This document shows, one piece after another, positions 34,983 through 51,992 of a stretch of 64,000 bases of DNA. The stretch is from Escherichia coli. GTDB taxonomy: Bacteria; Pseudomonadota; Gammaproteobacteria; Enterobacterales; Enterobacteriaceae. The position numbers and the translations under genes are program-made. A model generated the notes under the pieces. The model did no database searches, was not told where the DNA came from, and worked only from the letters and a program-made list of their open reading frames with translations. Numbering within the stretch: the first letter of the stretch is position 1; each line of letters starts with the position of its first letter. The DNA lies in assembly GCF_029227855.1 (NCBI RefSeq), contig NZ_CP074356.1. The stretch is one strand, 5' to 3'.

Positions 34983-36197
34983 ATGAAGATCGTAAAGGCT
35001 GAAGTTTTTGTTACCTGTCCGGGGCGTAATTTCGTCACATTAAAAATCACTACTGAGGACGGTATTACGGGCCTTGGGGATGCCACCCTCAATGGACGTG
35101 AGCTTTCCGTGGCCTCTTATTTGCAGGATCACCTTTGTCCGCAGCTTATTGGTCGCGATGCGCACCGTATCGAAGATATCTGGCAGTTTTTCTATAAAGG
35201 TGCTTACTGGCGTCGCGGCCCGGTGACGATGTCGGCCATTTCAGCGGTTGATATGGCGCTGTGGGATATTAAAGCCAAAGCTGCCAACATGCCGCTTTAC
35301 CAGTTACTCGGCGGCGCGTCTCGTGAAGGGGTGATGGTTTATTGCCATACCACCGGTCACAGTATTGATGAAGCTCTGGATGATTATGCCCGTCATCAGG
35401 AGCTGGGATTCAAAGCCATCCGCGTGCAGTGCGGAATCCCTGGTATGAAAACCACATACGGCATGTCGAAAGGTAAAGGTCTGGCTTATGAACCCGCAAC
35501 CAAAGGACAGTGGCCGGAAGAGCAGCTGTGGTCGACGGAGAAATACCTCGATTTCATGCCGAAATTGTTTGACGCGGTACGTAACAAGTTTGGTTTTAAT
35601 GAACATTTGCTGCATGACATGCACCATCGCTTAACGCCTATTGAAGCGGCGCGCTTTGGTAAAAGCATTGAAGATTATCGCATGTTCTGGATGGAAGACC
35701 CGACGCCTGCGGAAAACCAGGAATGCTTCCGTCTCATTCGCCAACATACCGTCACACCCATCGCGGTGGGTGAAGTCTTCAACAGCATCTGGGACTGCAA
35801 GCAACTGATTGAAGAGCAACTTATCGATTATATCCGCACTACGCTGACCCACGCGGGTGGCATTACCGGTATGCGCCGGATTGCCGATTTTGCTTCGCTG
35901 TATCAGGTACGTACTGGCTCACACGGTCCTTCCGATTTGTCACCAGTCTGCATGGCTGCGGCGCTGCACTTTGATCTGTGGGTCCCCAATTTCGGTGTCC
36001 AGGAATACATGGGTTATTCCGAACAAATGCTCGAAGTCTTCCCGCACAACTGGACTTTCGATAACGGCTATATGCATCCGGGAGACAAACCGGGTCTTGG
36101 CATCGAATTCGATGAAAAGCTGGCGGCGAAATATCCCTATGAATCTGCTTATCTACCAGTCGCACGTCTGGAAGATGGCACGCTGTGGAACTGGTAA
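34983..36197 (+). CDS. rspA: starvation-sensing protein RspA, enolase-superfamily dehydratase (404 aa)
   Basis: ORF 34950..36197; ATG at 34983 ([17 protein letters not shown]...) preceded by AAGGAA. Confidence 0.94.
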
Positions 36198-36208
36198 GGA
36201 GTAAGATA

Positions 36209-37228
36209 ATGAAAAGCATTTTAATTGAAAAACCGAATCAACTGGCAATTATCGAACGCGAAATACCTACCCCGTCAGCGGGTGAAGTACGAGTAAAAGT
36301 GAAACTTGCCGGAATTTGTGGTTCAGATAGCCATATTTATCGTGGGCATAATCCTTTTGCGAAATATCCGCGCGTCATTGGACATGAATTTTTTGGCGTC
36401 ATTGATGCAGTGGGTGAAGGCGTGGAAAGCGCCAGAGTCGGTGAACGCGTTGCTGTCGATCCGGTGGTCAGCTGTGGGCATTGCTATCCGTGCTCTATAG
36501 GTAAGCCGAACGTTTGTACAACACTGGCTGTATTAGGTGTGCACGCTGACGGTGGTTTCAGTGAATATGCCGTGGTTCCGGCAAAAAATGCGTGGAAAAT
36601 TCCTGAAGCAGTGGCCGATCAATATGCGGTGATGATCGAACCTTTTACCATTGCGGCGAACGTAACCGGTCATGGTCAACCGACTGAAAATGATACCGTT
36701 CTGGTTTACGGTGCCGGTCCAATCGGCCTGACGATCGTTCAGGTATTAAAAGGCGTCTATAACGTTAAAAATGTGATTGTTGCCGATCGCATTGATGAAC
36801 GACTGGAAAAAGCGAAAGAGAGCGGGGCTGACTGGGCGATTAATAACAGCCAGACACCGCTTGGCGAGATTTTCGCTGAAAAAGGCATAAAGCCGACATT
36901 AATTATCGATGCGGCTTGTCATCCTTCTATCCTGAAAGAGGCCGTAATTCTGGCTTCTCCAGCGGCACGTATTGTATTGATGGGCTTCTCCAGTGAACCG
37001 TCTGAAGTGATTCAGCAAGGAATTACCGGAAAAGAACTCTCTATTTTCTCTTCACGCTTAAATGCAAATAAATTCCCGGTCGTTATCGACTGGTTAAGTA
37101 AAGGGTTAATTAAACCAGAAAAATTAATTACCCATACGTTTGATTTCCAGCATGTTGCTGATGCCATTAGTTTATTTGAACAGGATCAAAAACATTGCTG
37201 CAAAGTCTTACTCACTTTTTCTGAATAA
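36209..37228 (+). CDS. rspB: starvation-sensing protein RspB, Zn-dependent alcohol dehydrogenase family (339 aa)
   Basis: ORF 36185..37228; ATG at 36209 after AAGGAG; motifs CGSDSH, GHEFFG, GAGPIG. Confidence 0.94.
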   Translation: MKSILIEKPNQLAIIEREIPTPSAGEVRVKVKLAGICGSDSHIYRGHNPFAKYPRVIGHEFFGVIDAVGEGVESARVGERVAVDPVVSCGHCYPCSIGKPNVCTTLAVLGVHADGGFSEYAVVPAKNAWKIPEAVADQYAVMIEPFTIAANVTGHGQPTENDTVLVYGAGPIGLTIVQVLKGVYNVKNVIVADRIDERLEKAKESGADWAINNSQTPLGEIFAEKGIKPTLIIDAACHPSILKEAVILASPAARIVLMGFSSEPSEVIQQGITGKELSIFSSRLNANKFPVVIDWLSKGLIKPEKLITHTFDFQHVADAISLFEQDQKHCCKVLLTFSE

Positions 37229-37285
37229 TACCAATAACGGCGAATAAGTAGTACGCATCTTACCTCTTTTTTAGAGATAACCATT

Positions 37286-37414
37286 ATGACAATAGAAAAA
37301 CACGAAAGAAGCACTAAGGATTTGGTGAAAGCAGCAGTATCGGGATGGCTGGGCACTGCGCTTGAATTTATGGATTTCAAGAGTCATACGTGTCAACTAT
37401 TTGATAAATATTAA
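37286..37414 (+). pseudogene. ydfJ: 5' fragment of an MFS-transporter gene (ydfJ-like) truncated at the prophage junction
   Basis: Hand translation MTIEKHERSTKDLVKAAVSGWLGTALEFMDF then KSHTCQLFDKY-stop; the first ~31 residues look like the conserved N-terminus of a metabolite:H+ symporter; the reading frame ends 2 bp before the integrase stop. Confidence 0.5.
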
Positions 37415-37415
37415 A

Positions 37416-38696
37416 TTAATTTTTCATTGCTTCGTTATGGGGCATGGTTGGGGCAAACTCGCTTAACTGTGTATTTAACAAAGCTACCTGTGCATTATTG
37501 TTTTCAGACATCCATTTTCCGTATACCTGAAATACCATTTGCGCATCTGCATGGCCCATCTGGTTTGCTATAAATGCCGGGTTAGCACCAGCTGTCAGCG
37601 ACCAGCAGGCATAAGTATGTCTCGACTGATATGATTTTCGATGGCGGAGTCCGGCACGTTTTATCGCTGCGTCCCACATCTGCCTTATTGAGTCAACGGT
37701 AAAATGGTCACCATAATTTTTTACTCTCGCTGACACTTCAGGTTGAAAAACAAAGGTGCATTTTTGTTTTTCTGTTCTGCCATACTCTCTGAGGTGAACA
37801 TCAATGATATGCTCTTTGCTCAGTCTCGTTAATGTCATCTGACTCCGGAGAGCGTCGATTGCTGGCTTAATAAGATGAATGACCCGATTGGTTCCCGCCT
37901 GTGTTTTTGGTACCGTGAAACGGTCTTTTGCTAAATTTCTCCTGATCATCATTGTTCCATTTTTCAGATCTATGTCCTCCCATCCAAGTGCACACAGCTC
38001 ACCAGGGCGAACGCCAGTATAAACAGAAACACACCATAAATTTTTTGCTTGCTGATTTCTGCACGCATCGATAAGACGGATAAATTCCTCCCGCGAAAGA
38101 GGATCCGGAATGGTTCTTGATTCCTTTAATGGCGAGATCCCCTTAAACGGATTATCTGGCAGGTAACCGTTATCAACACCAAACTGGAACACGGCGTTAA
38201 GATTTGTCATGTAATTATTTACAGTTACAGCCGATCTCCCTGGTTGTGTAACAATATAGTTACTTTTGGGGATCTGGTATCCAGTCAGTAGCTCTTTACG
38301 AACCTCCAGTAATTTTTCTTTATTAATCGATGAGGCAAGATTTTTTTCACCGATTATGCTCAGGATATTTTTGATGACGGCACGGTATGTGTTGAGTGAT
38401 GTTTTGGCGACTTCAGTTTCTTTCAGTGCCAGAAATTTTTCAGCCAGTTCTTTTATGGTTAAATCTTGTCGGGCCTCACCAAATTTTTCCAGATTGCGTG
38501 AGGAGGGAAACTGTTTTGCATAGTCGAAAACACCAGTTTTTATTGCGTAACAAACAGAGGCGCGTAGTTCACCTGCAACGCGCCTGTTTTTTGCTGTGTC
38601 AGGAACCCCCAGATTTTCCCTGACTCTTACGCCTTTATAAACAAACCAGATACGTAATTTCCCTCCATGGTTTTCCACGCCTGTCGGATATTTCAT
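37416..38696 (-). CDS. intQ: phage tyrosine integrase (about 426 aa)
   Basis: ORF 37416..38711 (-); preferred start at second ATG 38696 (MKYPTGVENHGGKLRIWF...) preceded by GAGAGG; catalytic region ...HRKSYQSRHTYACW...HADAQMVFQVYGKWM. Confidence 0.88.
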   Translation of the reverse strand: MKYPTGVENHGGKLRIWFVYKGVRVRENLGVPDTAKNRRVAGELRASVCYAIKTGVFDYAKQFPSSRNLEKFGEARQDLTIKELAEKFLALKETEVAKTSLNTYRAVIKNILSIIGEKNLASSINKEKLLEVRKELLTGYQIPKSNYIVTQPGRSAVTVNNYMTNLNAVFQFGVDNGYLPDNPFKGISPLKESRTIPDPLSREEFIRLIDACRNQQAKNLWCVSVYTGVRPGELCALGWEDIDLKNGTMMIRRNLAKDRFTVPKTQAGTNRVIHLIKPAIDALRSQMTLTRLSKEHIIDVHLREYGRTEKQKCTFVFQPEVSARVKNYGDHFTVDSIRQMWDAAIKRAGLRHRKSYQSRHTYACWSLTAGANPAFIANQMGHADAQMVFQVYGKWMSENNNAQVALLNTQLSEFAPTMPHNEAMKN

Positions 38697-39054: not shown

Positions 39055-41526
39055 TTAAGAATCAGCCTGACTCGGGATCAGTTTTTGCCAGATAACTGAA
39101 ACGTATTTTGCCTGGTAACGGGCGTCATCAAGTGCATTATGCCGCTCACCTTCGAATGGAATAGCCGTTCTGGCATCGAAGTCTATGGCTTTCCCCAGCT
39201 CAACGATTGTGCGTACATCGCGATCGTTGTAGTAACGCCACGGGCAGGGGATCCCCTGCCGTTCGTATGAACGGCGCAAAATCGTGTTGTCGAAGTTGGC
39301 TCCATTTCCCCAGACCTGAACAAAAAATTCACCGGAGTTTTCGTCGATAAATTCCCGCAATTGTAACAGTGCATCATCTAACGGGATTTCATCGGTCATA
39401 ATGGCAGACTGCGCTTCACGTGATTGCTTCAGCCACCATTTAATGACGTCACGATCAATGACTCCGCCAGCAGTATTCAGATCTATGGTCTTGCTAAATT
39501 CCGGTCCCATATCTCCGGTTTGTGGATCGAAAAATATTGCGCCTATTGAGATAATCGGGGCATCAGGATTTTTTCCCATGGTTTCAAGGTCGATCATTAG
39601 ATGGTCACACGTCCTGCTGGTGGATGTGATAACGTGATGACCGTTCACCGTAATTAAGGGATCTGCCGTCTCGCCAGTTTCACTATCGCTGGCGTGGTCC
39701 TGAGCGCTGCCAGCATTCTCCTTGTGTGGATGTTCAGCGCCTTCCATTTTCTCCGAATCGTCTTCCTGAACTTCAACCTGGTTCTTGTCATCGAATGTTT
39801 CCTGGTATGTTGCGTCGCCCATCACCGCACCACATTCAGGGCAGTTGCCGCCGCCGGTCTGACCGTAGGCGGTGCAGATTTTTTCCGCTTCCTGTTGCGC
39901 TACTGGCTCAGGTTGTTTCGTTTCTGGCTCGTTTTGTAACGCATTTGGGCTGTTTTGTTCCGCTTTCTGGTCGTTCTGTTCCGTTTCTTGCTGGTTCTGG
40001 TTCACTGAATCGCGGGTTTCAATCCCCTTCACCCATTTCGGATCATTCGGATCGCTAATCCCTGCAACAAATTCACCACGTGATACAGCAAGCAACTGAT
40101 TGGCGTCAGGCTGGCTGATATTGGCTGCCTGCATAATTTTGTTTACTTCGTCAGCGGTAATTTTTACCGGCTCTGGTTGTGCGGTCGTGTCAGATGCACC
40201 AGTATTTTGTTGTGAACCTGAGTATGTACCGTTTTTGCGGGCGAAATATTCTTCTTTCGTGATTTCAGTAGCCCCGGCAGCCAGCGCCTTATCCAGACCA
40301 GAAAGTTTGTTTGCGCGACCGTATTTTTCGCCATCCTTGTCGGTAAAGAGGAAGTAGAACGGCCCCTCACGCTCTACAGATGGTTCGACTTCCACTTTGC
40401 ATTCAGTTTTTTCGTTGCCCGGAATTGCCGTTTCCACTGCATCAGTTTCTGGTACTGGCGACGAGAGAGTATCAGTTGCGCTCTGATTTGTTCCTTCATC
40501 TTCAAACACGCCCTTTGTAGTCAGGTATTTAGTAATGTATTTGTTCAGTGCCACAGGGTCTTTGTGAATGTCGATCGGACGTTCACGGACAAGGCCAAAA
40601 ATAGTCTGGCGGTCGTAGCGAAGGGCATCAGGCTGTTTGCGCATTGATGCCGAGATACGCTTCCAGTCTTCGCGGTCGTTGTCGATAACTTCATTTTTTG
40701 CCCAGCGATGGATGCTGCCGTCAATGTTTCCGGCATCCACATCACCAGGCCAGAGAGCGTAGGCCAGTTCGTCATCCAGTGTTTTCCATGTCTGCTTGTA
40801 TTCGCGATGAGTGGCAGCAATGACCGGGTTGATTTTTCCTGTTGAATTTTCAGTGTGCTGTTGATTGGCTCTGGCGCGGGCGAGATCAACAACAGACGTG
40901 TATTTTCCGGTTTCCTTGCGTTCATTTTCGCGACGTTTTTTCCAGATGCGCATCTCTGCCTGAATTTCGGGCCATTTAGCTCCAGGATTACATTTATGTT
41001 TAACCCACCCGATGGCATGCAGCTTAAGCTCCGGATACATGGCGTTAACTTCTGGCATTTTCATCAACGCTTCAACGATATGTCCGTCGAATGTTGCCAT
41101 GTCTTCCTGCAACAATTCCTGCGCGCTAATCACCATATCAACGGTGATGTTTTCACATGTGTCGAACTTAACCATGACAGCGTTCTGTACTTCAGGGGCC
41201 AGCTTGTCAAAAGTGACGTTCATCGGATCTGATTCAGTCTCAACCGGGACAAAGGAAGCAGACTCCTCATCCCAGCGGTTTTCCTGCATATATTCAGCAT
41301 CCCAGGAATCGAGGGCAGGGCGGGGTATACCGGGTTTATCCTCGCAAACAAGAAATTTATAAGCGCAGTCCTGAGCAACCGGATAATGTTCCAGGAATTG
41401 CCAGTGAAATTTTGCGCGGGCGCGACGTTCATCACCGGCTTCAATGGCAGTGGCTACAGCGATTGCACCTTCTTCCTTTATTGCCTGTTCGTCCGGAATG
41501 GCGGCGCAAATAAAGACTTTACTCAT
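39055..41526 (-). CDS. prophage exonuclease (RecE/ExoVIII-like position) with C-terminal DEDDh-type 3'-5' exonuclease domain (823 aa)
   Basis: ORF track 823 aa; C-terminal motifs MIDLETMG and ERHNALDDARYQ fit Exo I and Exo III of DnaQ-like exonucleases; acidic Q/E-rich central region. Confidence 0.78.
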   Translation of the reverse strand: MSKVFICAAIPDEQAIKEEGAIAVATAIEAGDERRARAKFHWQFLEHYPVAQDCAYKFLVCEDKPGIPRPALDSWDAEYMQENRWDEESASFVPVETESDPMNVTFDKLAPEVQNAVMVKFDTCENITVDMVISAQELLQEDMATFDGHIVEALMKMPEVNAMYPELKLHAIGWVKHKCNPGAKWPEIQAEMRIWKKRRENERKETGKYTSVVDLARARANQQHTENSTGKINPVIAATHREYKQTWKTLDDELAYALWPGDVDAGNIDGSIHRWAKNEVIDNDREDWKRISASMRKQPDALRYDRQTIFGLVRERPIDIHKDPVALNKYITKYLTTKGVFEDEGTNQSATDTLSSPVPETDAVETAIPGNEKTECKVEVEPSVEREGPFYFLFTDKDGEKYGRANKLSGLDKALAAGATEITKEEYFARKNGTYSGSQQNTGASDTTAQPEPVKITADEVNKIMQAANISQPDANQLLAVSRGEFVAGISDPNDPKWVKGIETRDSVNQNQQETEQNDQKAEQNSPNALQNEPETKQPEPVAQQEAEKICTAYGQTGGGNCPECGAVMGDATYQETFDDKNQVEVQEDDSEKMEGAEHPHKENAGSAQDHASDSETGETADPLITVNGHHVITSTSRTCDHLMIDLETMGKNPDAPIISIGAIFFDPQTGDMGPEFSKTIDLNTAGGVIDRDVIKWWLKQSREAQSAIMTDEIPLDDALLQLREFIDENSGEFFVQVWGNGANFDNTILRRSYERQGIPCPWRYYNDRDVRTIVELGKAIDFDARTAIPFEGERHNALDDARYQAKYVSVIWQKLIPSQADS

Positions 41527-41619
41527 TTTGTTTTAACCTCATGACAGATTTAAGGGTGAACAAATCCCTGCCATTGCTGGCATATAAGAATGAAATCGGA
41601 TGTTTATTACGGAACTGTT

Positions 41620-41811
41620 TTAAAGACCTGCCGGGATTTCGTTATTATCCTGGTGAATAACTTTATCGACAGGGTAACAGTTACCGGGAATTTTCTGTTC
41701 GGTTGCTGCAGTCACACACTCCTGCATTGTCCTGTGAACACTGACTGCAATATCAACTGGTTCTCCGGAAACAAGAAAAACTGTCAGAACAAGTGCAAAT
41801 GCTGTATTCAT
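41620..41811 (-). CDS. ydfD: small membrane-targeted protein YdfD (63 aa)
   Basis: ORF 41620..41865 (-); start at ATG 41809-41811 (MNTAFALVLTVFLVSGEPVD...); overlaps the dicB stop (ATGA). Confidence 0.8.
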   Translation of the reverse strand: MNTAFALVLTVFLVSGEPVDIAVSVHRTMQECVTAATEQKIPGNCYPVDKVIHQDNNEIPAGL

Positions 41812-41996
41812 TGCCAGCATCCTTTTTGTATCGGACGTAAACGGGCCAGCATTGAAAGAATGCATACTTTATTTAATAGCTCCCGTTCTTGTTTTCTCTT
41901 GTTAATGGCATCTTCAGTAAATACTGGGTTACTGATAGTGACACCAATTTCAAAACAACCTTCAGACGTATTAACGTTTGGTAATAACGTTTTCAT
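41808..41996 (-). CDS. dicB: cell-division inhibitor DicB (62 aa)
   Basis: ORF 41808..42101 (-); start at ATG 41994-41996 preceded by GAGGA; MKTLLPNVNTSEGCFEIGVTISNPVFTEDAINKRKQERELLNKVCILSMLARL... recognised as DicB. Confidence 0.88.
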   Translation of the reverse strand: MKTLLPNVNTSEGCFEIGVTISNPVFTEDAINKRKQERELLNKVCILSMLARLRPIQKGCWQ

Positions 41997-42165
41997 TATC
42001 GCGTCCTCAACAATGAATTTTGTGATGCAGTGCCTGGTGCCTCCAGGTGACGTTAACCAGTTAACAATTAACGTCGGATACAGAGAATCCACCCATAACA
42101 CTGTTTTTGGTTTTAACTGTTCCGCGTGCGCTCAGCCGCATTCACCGCATCACAAAATTCACTTT

Positions 42166-42223
42166 AAAAACGGCGGCAGAGCAGTCACGGAGTAAAACTG
42201 ATACCGCTAAACGTCACCAGAAA
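42166..42223 (-). ncRNA. dicF: DicF small RNA
   Basis: Reverse complement reads TTTCTGGTGACGTTTAGCGGTATCAGTTTTACTCCGTGACTGCTCTGCCGCCGTTTTT, matching the DicF sequence I recall, including terminator stem and U-tail; lies between the ydfC-like ORF and dicB. Confidence 0.85.
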
Positions 42224-42254
42224 ATTGATAACAGAGGGCGTTGCAGCGGGGTTG

Positions 42255-42446
42255 TCACTTAAGCGTATGGTCAACCTGACAACCCGGTGTCCTCAACGGG
42301 GAAGGAATAACCCCGCCATACTTACCGCCGCGCCATTTCGCGGGTTGCCACAACCGGAAGCGCACGGTCGAATTAAATTTAACGACACCGTACAGTGAGA
42401 CGAACTTCGCCGTGCGCTTTCGTGTTGTGTGCCTGCTTTTAACCAC
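42255..42446 (-). CDS. possible ydfC-like small ORF (63 aa, GTG start)
   Basis: Only positional support (between the ydfB-like ORF and dicF); composition not convincing; a second GTG ORF 42293..42478 competes. Confidence 0.25.
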   Translation of the reverse strand: MVKSRHTTRKRTAKFVSLYGVVKFNSTVRFRLWQPAKWRGGKYGGVIPSPLRTPGCQVDHTLK

Positions 42447-44604: not shown

Positions 44605-45550
44605 ACGCCCACTGGTTATAAACACGCAGCTGGCAATGAAAATCGGCTTAAACGAAGCCATTGTTTTGCAACAACTGCACTACTGGTTGAGAGATACCAA
44701 CTCCGGTATGGAATGTGATGGTGTTCGCTGGATTTATAACACAACGGAACAATGGCTGGAACAGTTCCCATTCTGGTCAGAGTCAACGTTAAAGCGCGCG
44801 TTTGCAAGTCTGAAAACGCTGGGGCTTTTGCGTTGTGAAAAGCTCAATAAATCAAAGCGCGATATGACCAATTTCTACACGATCAACTATGGGAGCGAGC
44901 TTTTAGATGGTGGCAAATTGAACGAATCCATCGGTTCAAAATGCGCCGCTCCATCAGGTCAAAATGACACGATGGAAGAGGTCAAAATGAAACGCTCCAT
45001 TGGTTCAAAACGATCCAATGTCATCGGGTCAAAATGGCCTGATGATCTTACAGAGAATACAACAGAGATTACTACAGAGAATAAAAACACTTTTCGTCCG
45101 GAAGCTTCGCAACCGGACCCGCAGACGACTGAACAGGATTTTTTAACCCGGAACTCCGACGCGGTTGTGTTTAGTGCGAAAAAACGCCAGTGGGGTAGCA
45201 GGGAGGATTTGGCGTGTGCGCAGTGGATCTGGGGGCGGATCGTGGGTCTCTACGAACAGGCAGCCAGTGATGATGGCGAGATCATGCGACCAAAAGAGCC
45301 TAACTGGACTGCCTGGGCCAATGACGTGCGCACAATGCGGATGCTGGATGGCAGAAGCCACAGACAAATTTGCGAAATGTTTGGTCGGGTTCAGCGAGAT
45401 CCATTCTGGGTAAAAAACATCATGAGCCCGTCAAAGCTCCGCGAAAAATGGGACGAACTGGTCATCCGCCTGGGACGTTCACCTGTACAGCGTTGTGTTA
45501 ATCATATTTCTGAACCGGATACAGAAATTCCGCCTGGTTTCAGAGGATAA
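44585..45550 (+). CDS. phage replication initiation / replisome organiser protein (O-like), about 321 aa
   Basis: ORF 44531..45550; start chosen at ATG 44585 (MSLLFAERPLVINTQLAMKIGLNEAIVLQQLHYWL...), an N-terminal winged-helix pattern I associate with phage replisome organisers; alternative start 44636. Confidence 0.7.
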   Translation: MSLLFAERPLVINTQLAMKIGLNEAIVLQQLHYWLRDTNSGMECDGVRWIYNTTEQWLEQFPFWSESTLKRAFASLKTLGLLRCEKLNKSKRDMTNFYTINYGSELLDGGKLNESIGSKCAAPSGQNDTMEEVKMKRSIGSKRSNVIGSKWPDDLTENTTEITTENKNTFRPEASQPDPQTTEQDFLTRNSDAVVFSAKKRQWGSREDLACAQWIWGRIVGLYEQAASDDGEIMRPKEPNWTAWANDVRTMRMLDGRSHRQICEMFGRVQRDPFWVKNIMSPSKLREKWDELVIRLGRSPVQRCVNHISEPDTEIPPGFRG

Positions 45551-45590
45551 GTGTTGATTTCAGGTCATGAGGTAATTTTAAGGGGGACTT

Positions 45591-46022
45591 GTGGCAAAAG
45601 TTTTTACACAAGAAGAGCGGGAAAAAATTAAAGGGCAGGTGGTGGAACTCGTGCGCCAGAGCGGTCGTGAGACGTTACGGCAACTGGAAGCTAAAACAGG
45701 TGCGACTAGATATCTGATGAGCGTTCTTGCCAGAGAGCTGGTAGCCAGTGGCGATGTATACAACTCCGGCTACGGGTTATTCCCGTCTGAACAGGCGCGT
45801 AAGGACTGGCAACACGCCCGCAAAAAACTCTCGAGGGCAAAGGTGAAGAAACCTGCTGTGGTTGATCCGGACCTTATCTGGTCATTACCTGACGGAGAAA
45901 TACGCCGCTACGACAGTCGCCTAAACATAATCTGTCGCGAGTGCCGGAAGACTGAAGTTATGCAGCGTATACTCGCATTCTATCAGGGAAATGTTCGATA
46001 TCTATTGAAGCGACGAGATTAA
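45591..46022 (+). CDS. hypothetical prophage protein (143 aa, GTG start)
   Basis: GTG at 45591 preceded by AGGGGG; basic protein; function unknown. Confidence 0.5.
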   Translation: MAKVFTQEEREKIKGQVVELVRQSGRETLRQLEAKTGATRYLMSVLARELVASGDVYNSGYGLFPSEQARKDWQHARKKLSRAKVKKPAVVDPDLIWSLPDGEIRRYDSRLNIICRECRKTEVMQRILAFYQGNVRYLLKRRD

Positions 46023-46345
46023 AGAGCATTAGTTCAGATGTGAATTGACATTTTCGTGGCACAAGATTAGCGCTAGCGTGGTCGTTTGGTTTGTGCCAAG
46101 AGCGGATAATGCTGACATTCCTATGCACTAATTAACGCAGAGCAAGCCAGTTAGTTGGTTATGGAAGTAAGTTGTAGCCAGCAACTATCACCATCGGAGA
46201 TATTTAGGGGGATGCACTCTAAGTTGTAGTTACTTTATAATGTCACTTTCAAAGCGGAAGCTTGTACAAAAGATGGATAAGCTTTTGTATAGTATGGGAT
46301 TCAAGAATCACTAAAAGATGACAACAGTACTTACAGGATGTGGCT

Positions 46346-46585
46346 ATGATCCGAATTATGATTAGAATATTTTCTTTGACATTCGTTGCTTGCGCTGGCT
46401 TTGCTGCATATCACTTCAATAGTGTGCCATTGATGTTCACTTCTGGTAGCTTTCTTGTAACATTTTTAGGTACATTTATTGTTAATAAAAAAAGTTCAGG
46501 GCATACAATAATTCAAAAAAGCGGTAGCCATTCAAAAAATAATCATACGGTCGTTTTTGGAAATAATGAAAACAAGCGAGGCTGA
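46346..46585 (+). CDS. small two-TM membrane peptide (79 aa), first gene of the AT-rich cassette
   Basis: ATG at 46346 with AGGA upstream; MIRIMIRIFSLTFVACAGFAAYHF...LMFTSGSFLVTFLGTFIV then polar tail; stop is 2 nt before the next start. Confidence 0.5.
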   Translation: MIRIMIRIFSLTFVACAGFAAYHFNSVPLMFTSGSFLVTFLGTFIVNKKSSGHTIIQKSGSHSKNNHTVVFGNNENKRG

Positions 46586-46587
46586 TC

Positions 46588-47184
46588 ATGGTTGGTGTTA
46601 CTCAAAGGTCAGGGAATTACTCACGTAATGTGCAGGTGGTTGTCGATTCTAACTCTGTTGATATTATAAAGTCTCCATCGATTTTTATGGATCTTGTTGG
46701 TATTTTAGTTGATTCGAATGTTATTGATCCTCGTACAAACAATGACTACGAGCCATATGATATTGAGAATAAAATAGACTTCAATGATGTTATAAAACAT
46801 AGAGAACGTATTGAAGGGTTCTATCTATATTCTTCGATGATAGATAAAGCGTATGAAACATTAAATGAAAGTATGCCTACTGCTAAGGAAACGGCACTGA
46901 AAAGCATCAATTCACGATATCTTGATTGTCAAGGAGATTTATTGCTTAAACATAGAGAAGCGTATAAGAGCTGCAAGGATGCTCAGGAACGGAATAATTT
47001 AAAGATTCAATTGGTAAGAGAGTTTGCAGATTGGATAATAGACAGTGTAATAGAGCACATCATTAAGAAATGCTTAAATTCTCTTATGGCAATGAATTAC
47101 ACAAGCGAAGAAATCGAATGCCATGCTTCTTTTATCGTTTATCATGCATTCGTAGAGTGTAAGATTCTGGAAAAACCAATATGA
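46588..47184 (+). CDS. hypothetical protein (198 aa), second gene of the AT-rich cassette
   Basis: ATG 46588 with GAGG SD; stop overlaps the next start (ATGA); no motif I recognise. Confidence 0.65.
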   Translation: MVGVTQRSGNYSRNVQVVVDSNSVDIIKSPSIFMDLVGILVDSNVIDPRTNNDYEPYDIENKIDFNDVIKHRERIEGFYLYSSMIDKAYETLNESMPTAKETALKSINSRYLDCQGDLLLKHREAYKSCKDAQERNNLKIQLVREFADWIIDSVIEHIIKKCLNSLMAMNYTSEEIECHASFIVYHAFVECKILEKPI

Positions 47185-47417
47185 TTATCTCTGATGTAAC
47201 AAAACCAAGCCAAACCTTGTATTACCTGGGAGCTCGGTTATTAGAATGCATGAGTTCAAATGCTTATTCGTATGTTGATATTATAGACTTGTATAATGAA
47301 TTCAAATCTAAAAATAACAACTCTTCATTCACGCAATATATTTACACTTTAAATTGGCTATATTTATTAGGCCTGGTTGATGCTAACGAAAATGGAGATT
47401 TGATATTATGTTTTTGA
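47181..47417 (+). CDS. hypothetical small protein (78 aa), third gene of the AT-rich cassette
   Basis: ATG 47181 overlapping the upstream stop; 3' end overlaps the ATPase start by 10 nt. Confidence 0.6.
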   Translation: MIISDVTKPSQTLYYLGARLLECMSSNAYSYVDIIDLYNEFKSKNNNSSFTQYIYTLNWLYLLGLVDANENGDLILCF

Positions 47418-49132
47418 AACGGCTAATAGTCAGTTCTTTCAGGCTTGGAGTGATTCGTGATATCGAATTTCACATTGGCGTTAATTTGATTATTGACCGA
47501 AACACCTCCAGCAAAGAGCAAACTGGAAATGGTGTGGGAAAAACTACTGTATTAAGAGCTTTAGATTTTTGTTTTGGAGCAGAACAACTGAATTTTTATA
47601 CCGATCCTGAATTCAAGAAAGAAAATTCGGTTATAAAAAATTATTTGATAGAGAACGAGATTGAGTTTTGTTTAATTCTCACAAAAGATTTGAATAATAA
47701 AACTGCACCAGTAATAAAAATTAAGCGTAAAATTACATCTGAGACTAATAAAACGAAGGTTATAGCCTCAATAAATGAAGAGTCCTATACGAAGGCTAAA
47801 GATTTCAACGAGGCTTTAAAAAGAACATTATATCTTGATTCCGCGATAAAACCGACCATACGAGAGATTATGGGACGTGTTATTCGAAATACGCATGACA
47901 AGATGTCGAACGCATTAAAAACGATAAAAATGGGTTCTAATACACAATATGAAACGTTAAATCTGTTTATGTTTGGGTTCGGTAACTCACAGATTCTGGA
48001 TGAAAAACAGTCAGTGACTAAAGCCTATAAACTGGCGAAATCCGATTATGAAGTAATTACTCGCCATCGCTCAAAGAATGCTTTGGAACAAGCTATTGCA
48101 ATTATAAATAGAGATATTATAGCACAAGAAGAGTTAATTTCTAATTTTCAAGTGGCAGACTCTTATAATGATATGCTTGCTGAGTTAAATGAGTTAAAAA
48201 TTAAAATTAGTGAAGTTTCTATCACACTATCATCTTTGGAGTTTAAGCAAAAATTAAACGATAAGGCTATACTAGATCTGGAAAAAAGTCATGAAAATAT
48301 AAATACACTAGATCTACAGAAGTTGTACTTAGAAGCAACTGATCGGTTAGGTAACTTAAACAAAGAGTTTACTGAGCTACTTTCGTTTCATAATAAAATG
48401 CTTGTAAAAAAAGCTGAGTTTATTAGAAAACAAATGCAGCCAGTGCTGCAAGAAATTTCCAAATATAAAGATGAACTAAATAATTTATTGACTCAAGAAT
48501 CAGAGCTTTTAAAGAGTTTGTCTTCGCATGGGACATTGGCAGACCTGCAAATAATGCAAAAAAAATTAAATTCATTATTTGAAGAAAAAGGTGGGCTTGA
48601 AGCTGGACTACTTCAAATCCAAGAGATGGAGAACAACTTTAATATACTGAAAGCAAAGTTTAATGATGTGTCAGATAGATTAAAATCTAAACTTGACGAT
48701 TTTAACAAACGTCTTGCGCTATTCAATTCCTATTTTTCTTTATATACTAAAAAATTATATCAGGATGAATATATTCTTTCCTATAAAGATTCCTCCGGTT
48801 CTTTCGTTTTTACCATTGAACCTTTAGGAACTTTGCTCACATCAGGTAATCAGGGAGAAGGAAAAAAGAAAGCCCAGGTTGCCTCTTTAGATTTTGCCTA
48901 TTTATCTGTCCAGGAGTCTTTAGAAGCCAGAACACCACGTTTTATAGCTCATGATGGAATTGAGGCAATTCATGTAAATCAAATAAATAAGTTATTCGAG
49001 ATAGCTTCGGGGATTAATGGTCAATATATATTGGCTATTCTTAAAGACAAGTTGGAGAATATTGATCAAGACTTCATCAATAATAGTGTTGTGCTTGAGC
49101 TTGGGGAGGACGATAAGTTTTTTAGGCTTTAA
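47408..49132 (+). CDS. SMC/Rad50/ABC-type coiled-coil ATPase (574 aa), fourth gene of the AT-rich cassette
   Basis: N-terminal P-loop TGNGVGKTTVLRALDFCFG (RecF/SMC-type Walker A); ~300-aa heptad-rich central region; C-terminal TSGNQGEG (signature-like) followed by RFIAHDGIEAIH (Walker-B/D-loop-like); GGAG SD. Confidence 0.8.
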   Translation: MFLKRLIVSSFRLGVIRDIEFHIGVNLIIDRNTSSKEQTGNGVGKTTVLRALDFCFGAEQLNFYTDPEFKKENSVIKNYLIENEIEFCLILTKDLNNKTAPVIKIKRKITSETNKTKVIASINEESYTKAKDFNEALKRTLYLDSAIKPTIREIMGRVIRNTHDKMSNALKTIKMGSNTQYETLNLFMFGFGNSQILDEKQSVTKAYKLAKSDYEVITRHRSKNALEQAIAIINRDIIAQEELISNFQVADSYNDMLAELNELKIKISEVSITLSSLEFKQKLNDKAILDLEKSHENINTLDLQKLYLEATDRLGNLNKEFTELLSFHNKMLVKKAEFIRKQMQPVLQEISKYKDELNNLLTQESELLKSLSSHGTLADLQIMQKKLNSLFEEKGGLEAGLLQIQEMENNFNILKAKFNDVSDRLKSKLDDFNKRLALFNSYFSLYTKKLYQDEYILSYKDSSGSFVFTIEPLGTLLTSGNQGEGKKKAQVASLDFAYLSVQESLEARTPRFIAHDGIEAIHVNQINKLFEIASGINGQYILAILKDKLENIDQDFINNSVVLELGEDDKFFRL

Positions 49133-49279
49133 GATTTGTAATTTGATAGATATGTAGATATCATTTTTCTCGCTCAAAACTGACAGTCAGATTTGAGCGA
49201 ATTGCTTATGTAAGTATTTCGCAGAATCATGCCATTTATATTTATTAGAACATACGTACTTTAAATGTGGGAGGCTGTC

Positions 49280-49366
49280 ATGTTGGTTCTTAAATGTTCG
49301 CTGACTATTGCGGTGGTGCGGGTAATTTATTGTTCTGTTATTCTTATGGATCGCCTTTCTGACTGA
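49280..49366 (+). CDS. possible 28-aa hydrophobic peptide
   Basis: ATG 49280 preceded by GGGAGG at spacing 6; MLVLKCSLTIAVVRVIYCSVILMDRLSD; could be coincidental. Confidence 0.25.
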   Translation: MLVLKCSLTIAVVRVIYCSVILMDRLSD

Positions 49367-49577
49367 TTTCATATTGGCGAGATAACGGGAGTTAAGTAGA
49401 ATGCCTGCGGGTGCTTGAGGCTATCTGCCTCGGGCATGAACACCAACGGCAGATAGAGAAAAGCCCCAGTTAACATTACGCGTCCTGCAAGACGCTTAAC
49501 ATTAATCTGAGGCCAATTTCATGCTAGACACATGTAGGTTAGCCTCTTACGTGCCGAAAGGCAAGGAGAAGCAGGCT

Positions 49578-49733
49578 ATGAAGCAGCAAAAGGCGATGTT
49601 AATCGCCCTGATCGTCATCTGTTTAACCGTCATAGTGACGGCACTGGTAACGAGGAAAGACCTCTGCGAGGTACGAATCCGAACCGGCCAGACGGAGGTC
49701 GCTGTCTTCACAGCTTACGAACCTGAGGAGTAA
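49578..49733 (+). CDS. hokD: Hok/Gef-family membrane toxin HokD (51 aa)
   Basis: ATG 49578 preceded by AAGGAGAAG; MKQQKAMLIALIVICLTVIVTALVTRKDLCEVRIRTGQTEVAVFTAYEPEE; ORF track shows an in-frame upstream extension from 49521. Confidence 0.86.
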   Translation: MKQQKAMLIALIVICLTVIVTALVTRKDLCEVRIRTGQTEVAVFTAYEPEE

Positions 49734-49740
49734 GAGACCC

Positions 49741-49830
49741 GGCGAGGGAGAAATCCCTCGCCACCTCTGATGTGACAGGCATCCTCAACGCACCCGCACT
49801 TAACCCGCTTCGGCGTGTTTTTGTTTTTAT
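49741..49830 (+). terminator. stem-loops and T-run downstream of hokD (putative 3' fold-back/terminator region)
   Basis: Hairpin ggcgaggga-gaaa-tccctcgcc at 49741-49762, then cgcttcggcg followed by tgtttttgtttttatttt. Confidence 0.4.
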
Positions 49831-49949
49831 TTTCAACGCGTTTGAAGTTCTGGACGGTGCCGGAATAGAATCAAAAATACTTAAGTAGCGCGCAGGGATA
49901 AGAGGGATGTTCCCTTAAAGGGGAGAGCTAATTATCCGGAAGGATTCTG

Positions 49950-50201
49950 ATGATGAACATCGAAGAACTGCGTAAAATTTTTTGTGAAGATGGCCTCTAT
50001 GCTGTGTGCGTTGAAAATGGAAATCTTGTTAGTCATTACCGCATTATGTGTTTGCGAAAGAATGGGGCTGCGTTAATTAATTTTGTGGATGGTCGAGTGA
50101 CAGACGGATTTATCTTGCGCGAAGGTGAGTTTGTCACTTCATTACAGGCACTGAAAGAGATCGGAATAAAAGCAGGCTTTTCAGCTTTTGCAGAAGAATA
50201 A
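49950..50201 (+). CDS. rem: Rem protein (83 aa), function unknown
   Basis: ORF track 83 aa MMNIEELRKIFCEDGLYAVCVENGNLVSHYRIMCLRK...; conserved Qin gene next to hokD. Confidence 0.8.
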   Translation: MMNIEELRKIFCEDGLYAVCVENGNLVSHYRIMCLRKNGAALINFVDGRVTDGFILREGEFVTSLQALKEIGIKAGFSAFAEE

Positions 50202-50267
50202 ACTCATCTACAATCTTGCGCGGGGCTGAACTCCCGCTGAGTAACACCGTGCCACCGGAGAAAACCG

Positions 50268-50546
50268 ATGGCACGCAACGTAAAATATTACAATTCTGAT
50301 AATTCGCCCGTTCTTGCCTGCACGCACGAGCGGTATTCTCACGCATTCAAGTCTGAATGGTTCCAGCACCCTCCATGCACTGAAGAGCAGGCTGAATGGA
50401 TAATTCAGTGTTACCGCAGGCGCGGATACGAGGTTAAGAAAGCCCTTAGTCTCGACTACCGTCACTGGATAATCTCAGTCAGATTGCCTTACTCCGAACG
50501 CCCACCGCGTCCGTCCCGTACATTCCAGCAACGCATCTGGAGGTAA
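50268..50546 (+). CDS. hypothetical prophage protein (92 aa)
   Basis: ATG 50268 with GGAG upstream; stop 1 nt before the ydfU start. Confidence 0.5.
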   Translation: MARNVKYYNSDNSPVLACTHERYSHAFKSEWFQHPPCTEEQAEWIIQCYRRRGYEVKKALSLDYRHWIISVRLPYSERPPRPSRTFQQRIWR

Positions 50547-50547
50547 C

Positions 50548-51597
50548 GTGCGGGTATTACTTCGACCTGTTCTGGTACCGGAACTCGGGCTGGTGGTCGT
50601 TAAGCCGGGCCGTGAATCCATGCCGGTATTCCACAATACCCGGGTACTGGTGGAGCCGGAACCGAAAAGCATGCGTAATCTGCCGTCCGGGGTCGTTCCT
50701 GCCGTTCGCCAGCCGCTGGTGGAAGACAAAACATTGCTGCCGTTTTTCAGTAACGCACGGGTGATTCGTGCTGCTGGTGGTGCTGGTGCATTGTCTGACT
50801 GGCTGTTGCGCCATATTAAATCCTGCCAGTGGCCACACGGCGATTATCATCACAGCGAAACCGTCATTCACCGTTATGGTACCGGCGCAATGGTGTTGTG
50901 CTGGCACTGCGACAACCAGCTGCGTGACCAGACATCCGAATCACTCGAGCAAGTTGCTCATCAAAACCTGTCAGCATGGATGATTGACGTCATCGGTCAC
51001 GCAATAAGCGGTACGCAGGAGCGTGAATTATCTCTGGCTGAATTATCCTGGTGGGCGGTCCGCAATCAGGTGGCGGACGCGCTACCGGAAGCGGTATTAC
51101 GTCGTTCGCTGGGGTTGCGTGCGGAAAAAATCCGCTCAATGTACCGCGAAAGCGACATCGTACCGGGAGAGCAGACCGCCACCAGCATATTGAAACAGCG
51201 CACAAAAAATCTTGCACCGTTGCCTCACGCCCACCAGCAACAAAACCCATCACAGGAAAAGACGGTGGTAAGCATCACCGTTGATCCAGAGTCTCCGGAA
51301 TCTTTCATGAAGCTGCCTAAACGTCACCGTTGGGTTAAGGAGAAATACACACGCTGGGTTAAGACACAGCCGTGTGCTTGCTGCGGGATGCCAGCCGACG
51401 ATCCGCATCATCTGATTGGTCACGGGCAGGGCGGAATGGGAACCAAAGCACATGATCTCTTTGTGTTGCCTTTGTGCAGAAAGCATCACGACGAGTTGCA
51501 TACGGATACCGTGGCATTTGAAGAGAAGTATGGCTCCCAACTGGAGCTGATTTTTCGATTTATCGATCGCGCGCTGGCAATTGGTGTGCTGGCCTAA
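50548..51597 (+). CDS. ydfU: DUF968-family prophage protein YdfU (349 aa)
   Basis: ORF track 349 aa, GTG start after GGAGG; C-terminal Cys/His cluster CACCGMP...[10 protein letters not shown]...CRKHHDELH. Confidence 0.87.
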
Positions 51598-51614
51598 TTT
51601 TGTGGAGTAAGTTG

Positions 51615-51992
51615 ATGCGTGATATTCAGATGGTTCTTGAGCGTTGGGGGGCATGGGCGGCTAATAATCATGAAGATGTGACCTGGTCGTCCATTGCCGC
51701 TGGTTTTAAGGGATTAATTCCTTCAAAAGTAAGATCTCGTCCGCAATGCTGTGACGATGACGCGATGATCATTTGTGAATGTATGGCTCGCCTGAGAAAA
51801 AACAACAGCGATTTACATGGTTTATTGGTGGACTATTATGTCGGCGGCATGACTTTTATGGCGCTTGCACGTAAGCATGGGCGATCTGATTGTTGGGTTG
51901 GCAGGATGCTCCAGAAAGCTGAGGGCGTAGTGGAGGGCATGCTGATGGTATTGGATCTCCGATTGGAGATGGATGCTGATTGTTCGAAATAA
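51615..51992 (+). CDS. late-gene antiterminator Q (QuuD-type), about 126 aa
   Basis: ORF 51600..51992 (TTG); ATG at 51615 after GGAG; [34 protein letters not shown]... recognised as the short Q family of DLP12 QuuD. Confidence 0.85.

Follow-up and report, generated by a model that had tools for sequence, protein, structure and literature searches.

The region upstream of hokD in the 64,000-nucleotide stretch of Escherichia coli DNA analysed here (contig NZ_CP074356.1; the window) is the cargo slot of a lambdoid prophage at the Qin locus, placed where the nin-like region starts and running from a ren-like DUF977 gene to a hok/mok/sok module. We consider it probable that the slot holds a Lamassu-like cassette, that hok/sok is self-contained, and that the relBE genes found beside hokD in K-12 are a later insertion.

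Slot layout and synteny

The slot was delimited by the following features:

45591..46022, + strand: left anchor gene, DUF977, 'LygF' or Ren-like exclusion protein, 143 aa (ORF, RefSeq name)
46023..46106, no strand: conserved left linker; loci with other cargo lose homology at 46094-46108 (BLAST against L002 and L007-L011)
46107..49269, + strand: variable cargo segment, here the AT-rich ABC-3C cassette (breakpoints, GC)
49270..49408, + strand: conserved right linker (breakpoints at 49270, 49238 or 49390-49397)
49280-49366, + strand: unannotated hydrophobic ORF of 28 aa inside the right linker, with the SD sequence GGGAGG

The DUF977 gene is the final conserved gene of the early operon ahead of the slot, and its protein matched PHROG 142 'Ren-like exclusion protein' (1e-44). 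The 28-aa ORF of the right linker is retained in six other loci at about 82% nucleotide identity. Further right, the ORF listing gave hokD (49578-49733), rem (49950-50201), ydfU (50548-51597) and Q (51600-51992). The sequence-only reading had described hokD, rem and ydfU as retained and preceded by an AT-rich ATPase cassette, and both descriptions were borne out: HokD was 100% identical to that of K-12, and the four cassette genes upstream of it (46107-49269) had a GC content of 0.31-0.36 over 46200-49200 against 0.45-0.55 in the flanks. Alignment with the K-12 Qin prophage likewise showed the assumed synteny to be real, at 36124-38575 (rspA/rspB/ynfP/intQ side, 98.8% identity), 40760-42440 (dicB side, 95%) and 49564-51597 (hokD-rem-ydfU, 93.9%). 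Positions 45000-50600 were 100% identical to E. coli 19A14.

The four-gene cassette

Four genes were assigned in the cargo segment:

46346..46585, + strand: small 2-TM protein, 79 aa (ATG at 46346) or 81 aa (GTG at 46340) (hydropathy, Dickeya homologue)
46588..47184, + strand: CTD10 protein, 198 aa (Pfam CTD10, 5.5e-9)
47181..47417, + strand: ABC-3C middle component MC6, 78 aa (Pfam MC6, 1.9e-13; RefSeq name)
47408..49132, + strand: SMC/Rad50-like ABC ATPase of the DUF2326 (YydD) family, 574 aa (Pfam DUF2326, 4e-14)

As judged from these assignments, the cassette is an ABC-3C (Lamassu-superfamily) system, made up of a DUF2326 ATPase, MC6, an enzyme-free CTD10 protein and a 2-TM protein. ABC-3C systems were reportedly defined by Krishnan et al. 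2020. The cassette has the gene order of Lamassu, DdmABC and ABC-3C systems, namely effector-side protein (LmuA), middle component (LmuC) and coiled-coil ABC ATPase (LmuB); it carries the Pfam ABC-3C families CTD10 and MC6, the fold of its ATPase fits LmuB structures, and its relatives bear variable effector domains on the CTD protein. It differs from Lamassu in that its ATPase belongs to the DUF2326/YydD branch and matched the PADLOC LmuB profile only weakly (6e-4), and in that its CTD10 protein has no enzymatic domain and a fourth gene encodes the motif-sharing 2-TM protein.

The ATPase contains a Walker A motif (GNGVGKTT) and a long coiled-coil insert, and was the only cassette protein to match PDC-M68B, a PADLOC candidate model (1e-41). 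Its AF2 model had a mean pLDDT of 85; the best Foldseek matches were YydD (1e-21) and Lamassu LmuB (1e-13 to 1e-12), which placed it with SMC/Rad50 proteins. In the CTD10 protein, residues 1-26 were unstructured (pLDDT below 50) and confident helices spanned 31-189, the CTD10 domain being all-helical; homologues elsewhere have an HNH-like N-terminal domain in place of the unstructured motif. For the 2-TM protein, no family was found in Pfam, PADLOC or PHROG. Dickeya and Pantoea also have the four-gene unit, with identities of about 50%. The promoter scan gave no convincing sigma-70 promoter or terminator for the cassette.

A motif shared by the 2-TM and CTD10 proteins

The C-terminal tail of the 2-TM protein, IIQKSGSHSKNNHTVVFGNN, resembles the N-terminus of the CTD10 protein encoded downstream (alignment score reached by 1 of 1000 shuffles). 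Across 12 split systems this G/N/Q-rich motif co-varied between the two proteins, cognate pairs having a mean score of 57.2 against 30.3 +/- 3.4 under random pairing, a value that none of 20000 permutations reached; part of this signal could come from an ancient internal duplication, not from function.

Amyloid signalling by Bab/Agp has been reported in abortive infection in E. coli (10.1101/2024.11.07.622273). The cassette has the same arrangement of a small protein followed by its partner as Bab/Agp (BASS11; Ibarlosa et al. 2024 preprint), fungal HET-S/NWD2 and bacterial Bell/NLR. As in Bab/Agp, the small protein carries a hydrophobic helix at its N-terminus and a G/N-rich motif at its C-terminus, the larger partner lies directly downstream with the same motif at its N-terminus, and the pairs co-vary. 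In place of a TPR-GreAB-PIN or NLR protein, the partner here is a CTD10 adaptor from an SMC-like ABC-3C complex; the window motif (Q+SG..S+N.Q.VV..N) belongs to another sequence family than BASS11, and any amyloid formation is putative. The shared motif suggests amyloid-like signalling to a membrane effector, a role that we propose for the 2-TM protein.

It is possible, although we doubt it, that the motif instead serves as a docking peptide or was left behind by a duplication, and that the 2-TM protein anchors the complex in the membrane or inhibits it rather than acting as an amyloid-templated effector. The motif is short, the window version is not BASS11-like, AF2 yields no structure for it, and the Lamassu effectors studied to date are enzymes released as tetramers. 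Against this, CTD10 proteins are free of an effector domain precisely where the small 2-TM protein is present, the same architecture is seen in Bab/Agp and in amyloid signalling pairs from fungi and bacteria, and the motifs of the ABC-3C pairs in loci L031 and L032 are similar to that of a neighbouring Bab/Agp-like pair, found in L031.

Proposed mechanism

Lamassu effectors are sequestered and then released (10.1101/2025.03.14.643221). By analogy with the solved Lamassu complexes, the DUF2326 SMC-like ATPase would form a dimer and, with MC6, keep the CTD10 protein inactive until aberrant phage DNA, for example DNA ends, set it free. The freed CTD10 protein would oligomerise and, because it has no enzyme domain, would act through its G/N/Q-rich N-terminal motif, contacting the matching 2-TM tail, possibly by amyloid-like templating. 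The 2-TM protein would then harm the membrane and the infection would be aborted.

Cargo diversity and exchange

Cargo between DUF977 and hokD was surveyed in a spread sample taken from 5426 complete E. coli genomes. Among other E. coli genomes and live lambdoid phages, the latter with the same DUF977-cargo-hok layout, this interval was found to harbour a dozen or more unrelated cargos. They include Kiwa, PD-T7-1, PD-Lambda-2-like, SIR2 and DUF4209, and 9 of 10 alternative cargo proteins tested matched PADLOC models: KwaA (1e-101) and KwaB (3e-159), PD-Lambda-2_C (1e-40), PD-T7-1 in phage mEp460 (4e-157), and further PDC-S39, PDC-S33, NsnA-like and SIR2. The suggestion of a swappable defence hotspot upstream of hok thus stood, and the data support the DUF977-hok gap as a genuine exchange slot for varied anti-phage systems across strains. 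The Lamassu-like four-gene cassette is rare in it (15 of 5426 complete genomes at the DUF977-hok site).

The P2/P4 hotspots (Rousset et al. 2022) and the P2 hotspot (Vassallo et al. 2022) likewise have conserved phage genes around highly variable cargo in which known and candidate defence systems abound. The slot differs from them in its phage type, which is lambdoid, and in its position between ren-like gene and hok, where the nin-like region begins. No description of this ren-like-to-hok slot was found in the literature.

We regard it as unlikely that the cassette has no immune function and acts instead in addiction, as a selfish module, or by supplying the prophage with an SMC-like factor (e.g. 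for DNA handling), with the 2-TM protein unrelated to it. The missing family assignment of the 2-TM protein and the mere 'candidate' status of the PADLOC model would fit such a role. Validated defence systems, however, occupy the slot in other strains, and both fold and gene order agree with Lamassu/ABC-3C. The CTD10 proteins of relatives swap in HNH-like effector domains in the style of conflict systems, and the 2-TM gene stays with the other three down to 26-32% ATPase identity, its tail co-varying with the CTD10 N-terminus. An anti-phage role of the cassette, with phage DNA as its trigger, is the reading we favour.

Among unrelated cargos, left breakpoints recurred at 46094-46108 or 45996, and right breakpoints at 49270, 49238 or 49390-49397. 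No direct or inverted repeats were found flanking 46107-49269, and the ORF listing showed no recombinase gene within it. Because breakpoints recur and both repeats and a recombinase gene are absent, we infer that phages swap cargo by recombination in the two conserved linkers. That the cassette transposed or integrated site-specifically in its own right, and did not come in through phage-to-phage recombination in the conserved flanks, is very improbable: its GC content lies far from that of the flanks and so marks it as foreign DNA, but terminal repeats, a target duplication and a recombinase gene are all absent from the segment, and its breakpoints coincide with those of unrelated cargos. Moreover, the 91.6%-identical copy in the more divergent genome H16 is accompanied by parts of both flanking genes, and at locus L011 part of the hok leader is repeated between two stacked cargos.

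The hok/mok/sok module

The right anchor comprised these features:

49374-49402, + strand: hok promoter-like site, TTGGCG-17-TAGAAT (promoter scan)
49409..49583, + strand: hok mRNA leader (Sok target region), complete here (Rfam RF01794 'sok')
49521..49733, + strand: mok-like frame of 70 codons, running in frame into hokD (49578-49733, 51 aa) (ORF list)
49536..49564, - strand: sok promoter-like site, -35 TTGCCT at 49564-49559, 17-nt spacer, -10 TAACCT at 49541-49536 (by eye)
49775..49826 (approximate), + strand: 3' end of hok mRNA, an fbi-like 5'-complementary segment followed by a terminal hairpin and T-run (MFE fold)

The leader matched all 157 positions of the RF01794 model (115.3 bits, E = 1e-26), and the promoter-like site finishes 7 nt ahead of its start. 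In the MFE fold of 49409-49826 the first nucleotides pair with the region just 5' of the terminal hairpin (z = -6.5). The sok promoter-like site, a putative one that scored under the consensus promoter-scan threshold, is presumably similar to the sok promoter of plasmid R1. In plasmid R1 mok is out of frame with hok, whereas the mok-like frame of the window runs in frame into hokD. The 51-aa Hok, full-length Rfam sok leader, overlapping mok-like frame, predicted 5'-3' fold-back and antisense promoter-like site are otherwise shared with hok/sok of R1 and with chromosomal hok loci in E. coli; unlike these, the hok of the window is prophage-borne and forms the right anchor of a cargo slot. An intact hok leader was present in 4035 genomes, a count that takes in paralogous hok loci.

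By these features the window carries the complete ancestral hok/mok/sok control region, and K-12 is a truncated, rewired state: its homology to the window begins only at 49564, so that K-12 hokD lacks the leader and the entire upstream control region. The question of how hokD is controlled here without the relBE promoter therefore had its premise inverted. In the window hokD would require no such promoter; its own, about 170 nt upstream of the start codon, would transcribe it, with control in the hok/sok manner by mok-coupled translation, antisense Sok RNA and 5'-3' fold-back.

The relBE element and the K-12 arrangement

The insertion site of relBE was located from junction sequences:

49564..49579, no strand: uninterrupted target AGGAGAAGCAGGCTAT, from the hokD SD to the 'AT' of its ATG

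With K-12 RelB, RelE, YdfV and FlxA as tblastn queries, no match was found in all 64 kb (best E = 3.8), in agreement with the earlier statement that RelB/RelE-like ORFs are absent. The further claim that the cassette occupies the K-12 relBE position failed on strain NCTC9008. That strain has a cargo of its own in the slot (a methyltransferase gene with DUF7167 and hypothetical pseudogenes), and relBE lies further right, on an IS1202-family element of 3273 bp that interrupts the hok leader and has a 16-bp direct repeat at its flanks and imperfect terminal inverted repeats (18/25). The target 16-mer is duplicated around the element in NCTC9008 and in the K-12 lineage, and K-12 has the NCTC9008 arrangement less a 4.8-kb deletion, which removed the left half.

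Copies of the element with 99.8% identity and an intact transposase were found on IncI (at pndA) and IncF (at hok) plasmids, each with its own 15-17-bp duplication. Its transposase has the RefSeq name IS1202-like (ISEsa1 family) and HTH and rve_3 domains. Like the ISAjo2 group of the IS1202 family at dif/pdif (Harmer & Hall 2023), the element is target-specific, with imperfect terminal repeats of about 25 bp, a long duplication (15-17 bp), and one kind of site and one orientation recurring. It differs in bearing the passengers flxA, ydfV and relBE (3.3 kb) and in its choice of target, which instead of dif is the SD/ATG of hok-family genes, directly following a TGCC-NNAA-GGCA palindrome; ISEsa1 itself is listed without a detectable duplication.

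That K-12 relBE and the ATPase cassette are alternative cargos of one exchange site, hokD here having lost its normal relBE promoter, is hardly credible: K-12 has relE-relB left of hokD with window homology resuming only 14 nt before the ATG, so that from K-12 alone the two appear as alternatives, but NCTC9008 carries both slot cargo and element, the insertion point lies 295 bp right of the slot boundary, the element is bounded by terminal inverted repeats and a 16-bp duplication and sits at hok-family start sites on plasmids, and the hok leader of the window is full, with its own promoter-like site. Relative to the relB-relE-hokD (relBEF) operon of K-12, the window represents the same chromosomal prophage locus, with hokD, rem and ydfU 94% identical; in K-12 the insertion and the 4.8-kb deletion fuse hokD behind relBE, whereas the site of the window is uninterrupted and relBE absent. 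relBE as an alternative slot cargo is contradicted by the junction sequences, and the K-12 relBE-hokD operon is a derived state, produced by transposon insertion outside the slot and not a slot allele. An IS1202-family transporter element (flxA, ydfV, relBE) entered the translation-initiation region of hokD, and the deletion came after. Integration of relBE into an ancestral 70-codon hokD ORF was already known (PMC6379469). Across the 5426 genomes, the relE-hokD junction occurred in 1165 and the left junction in 679.

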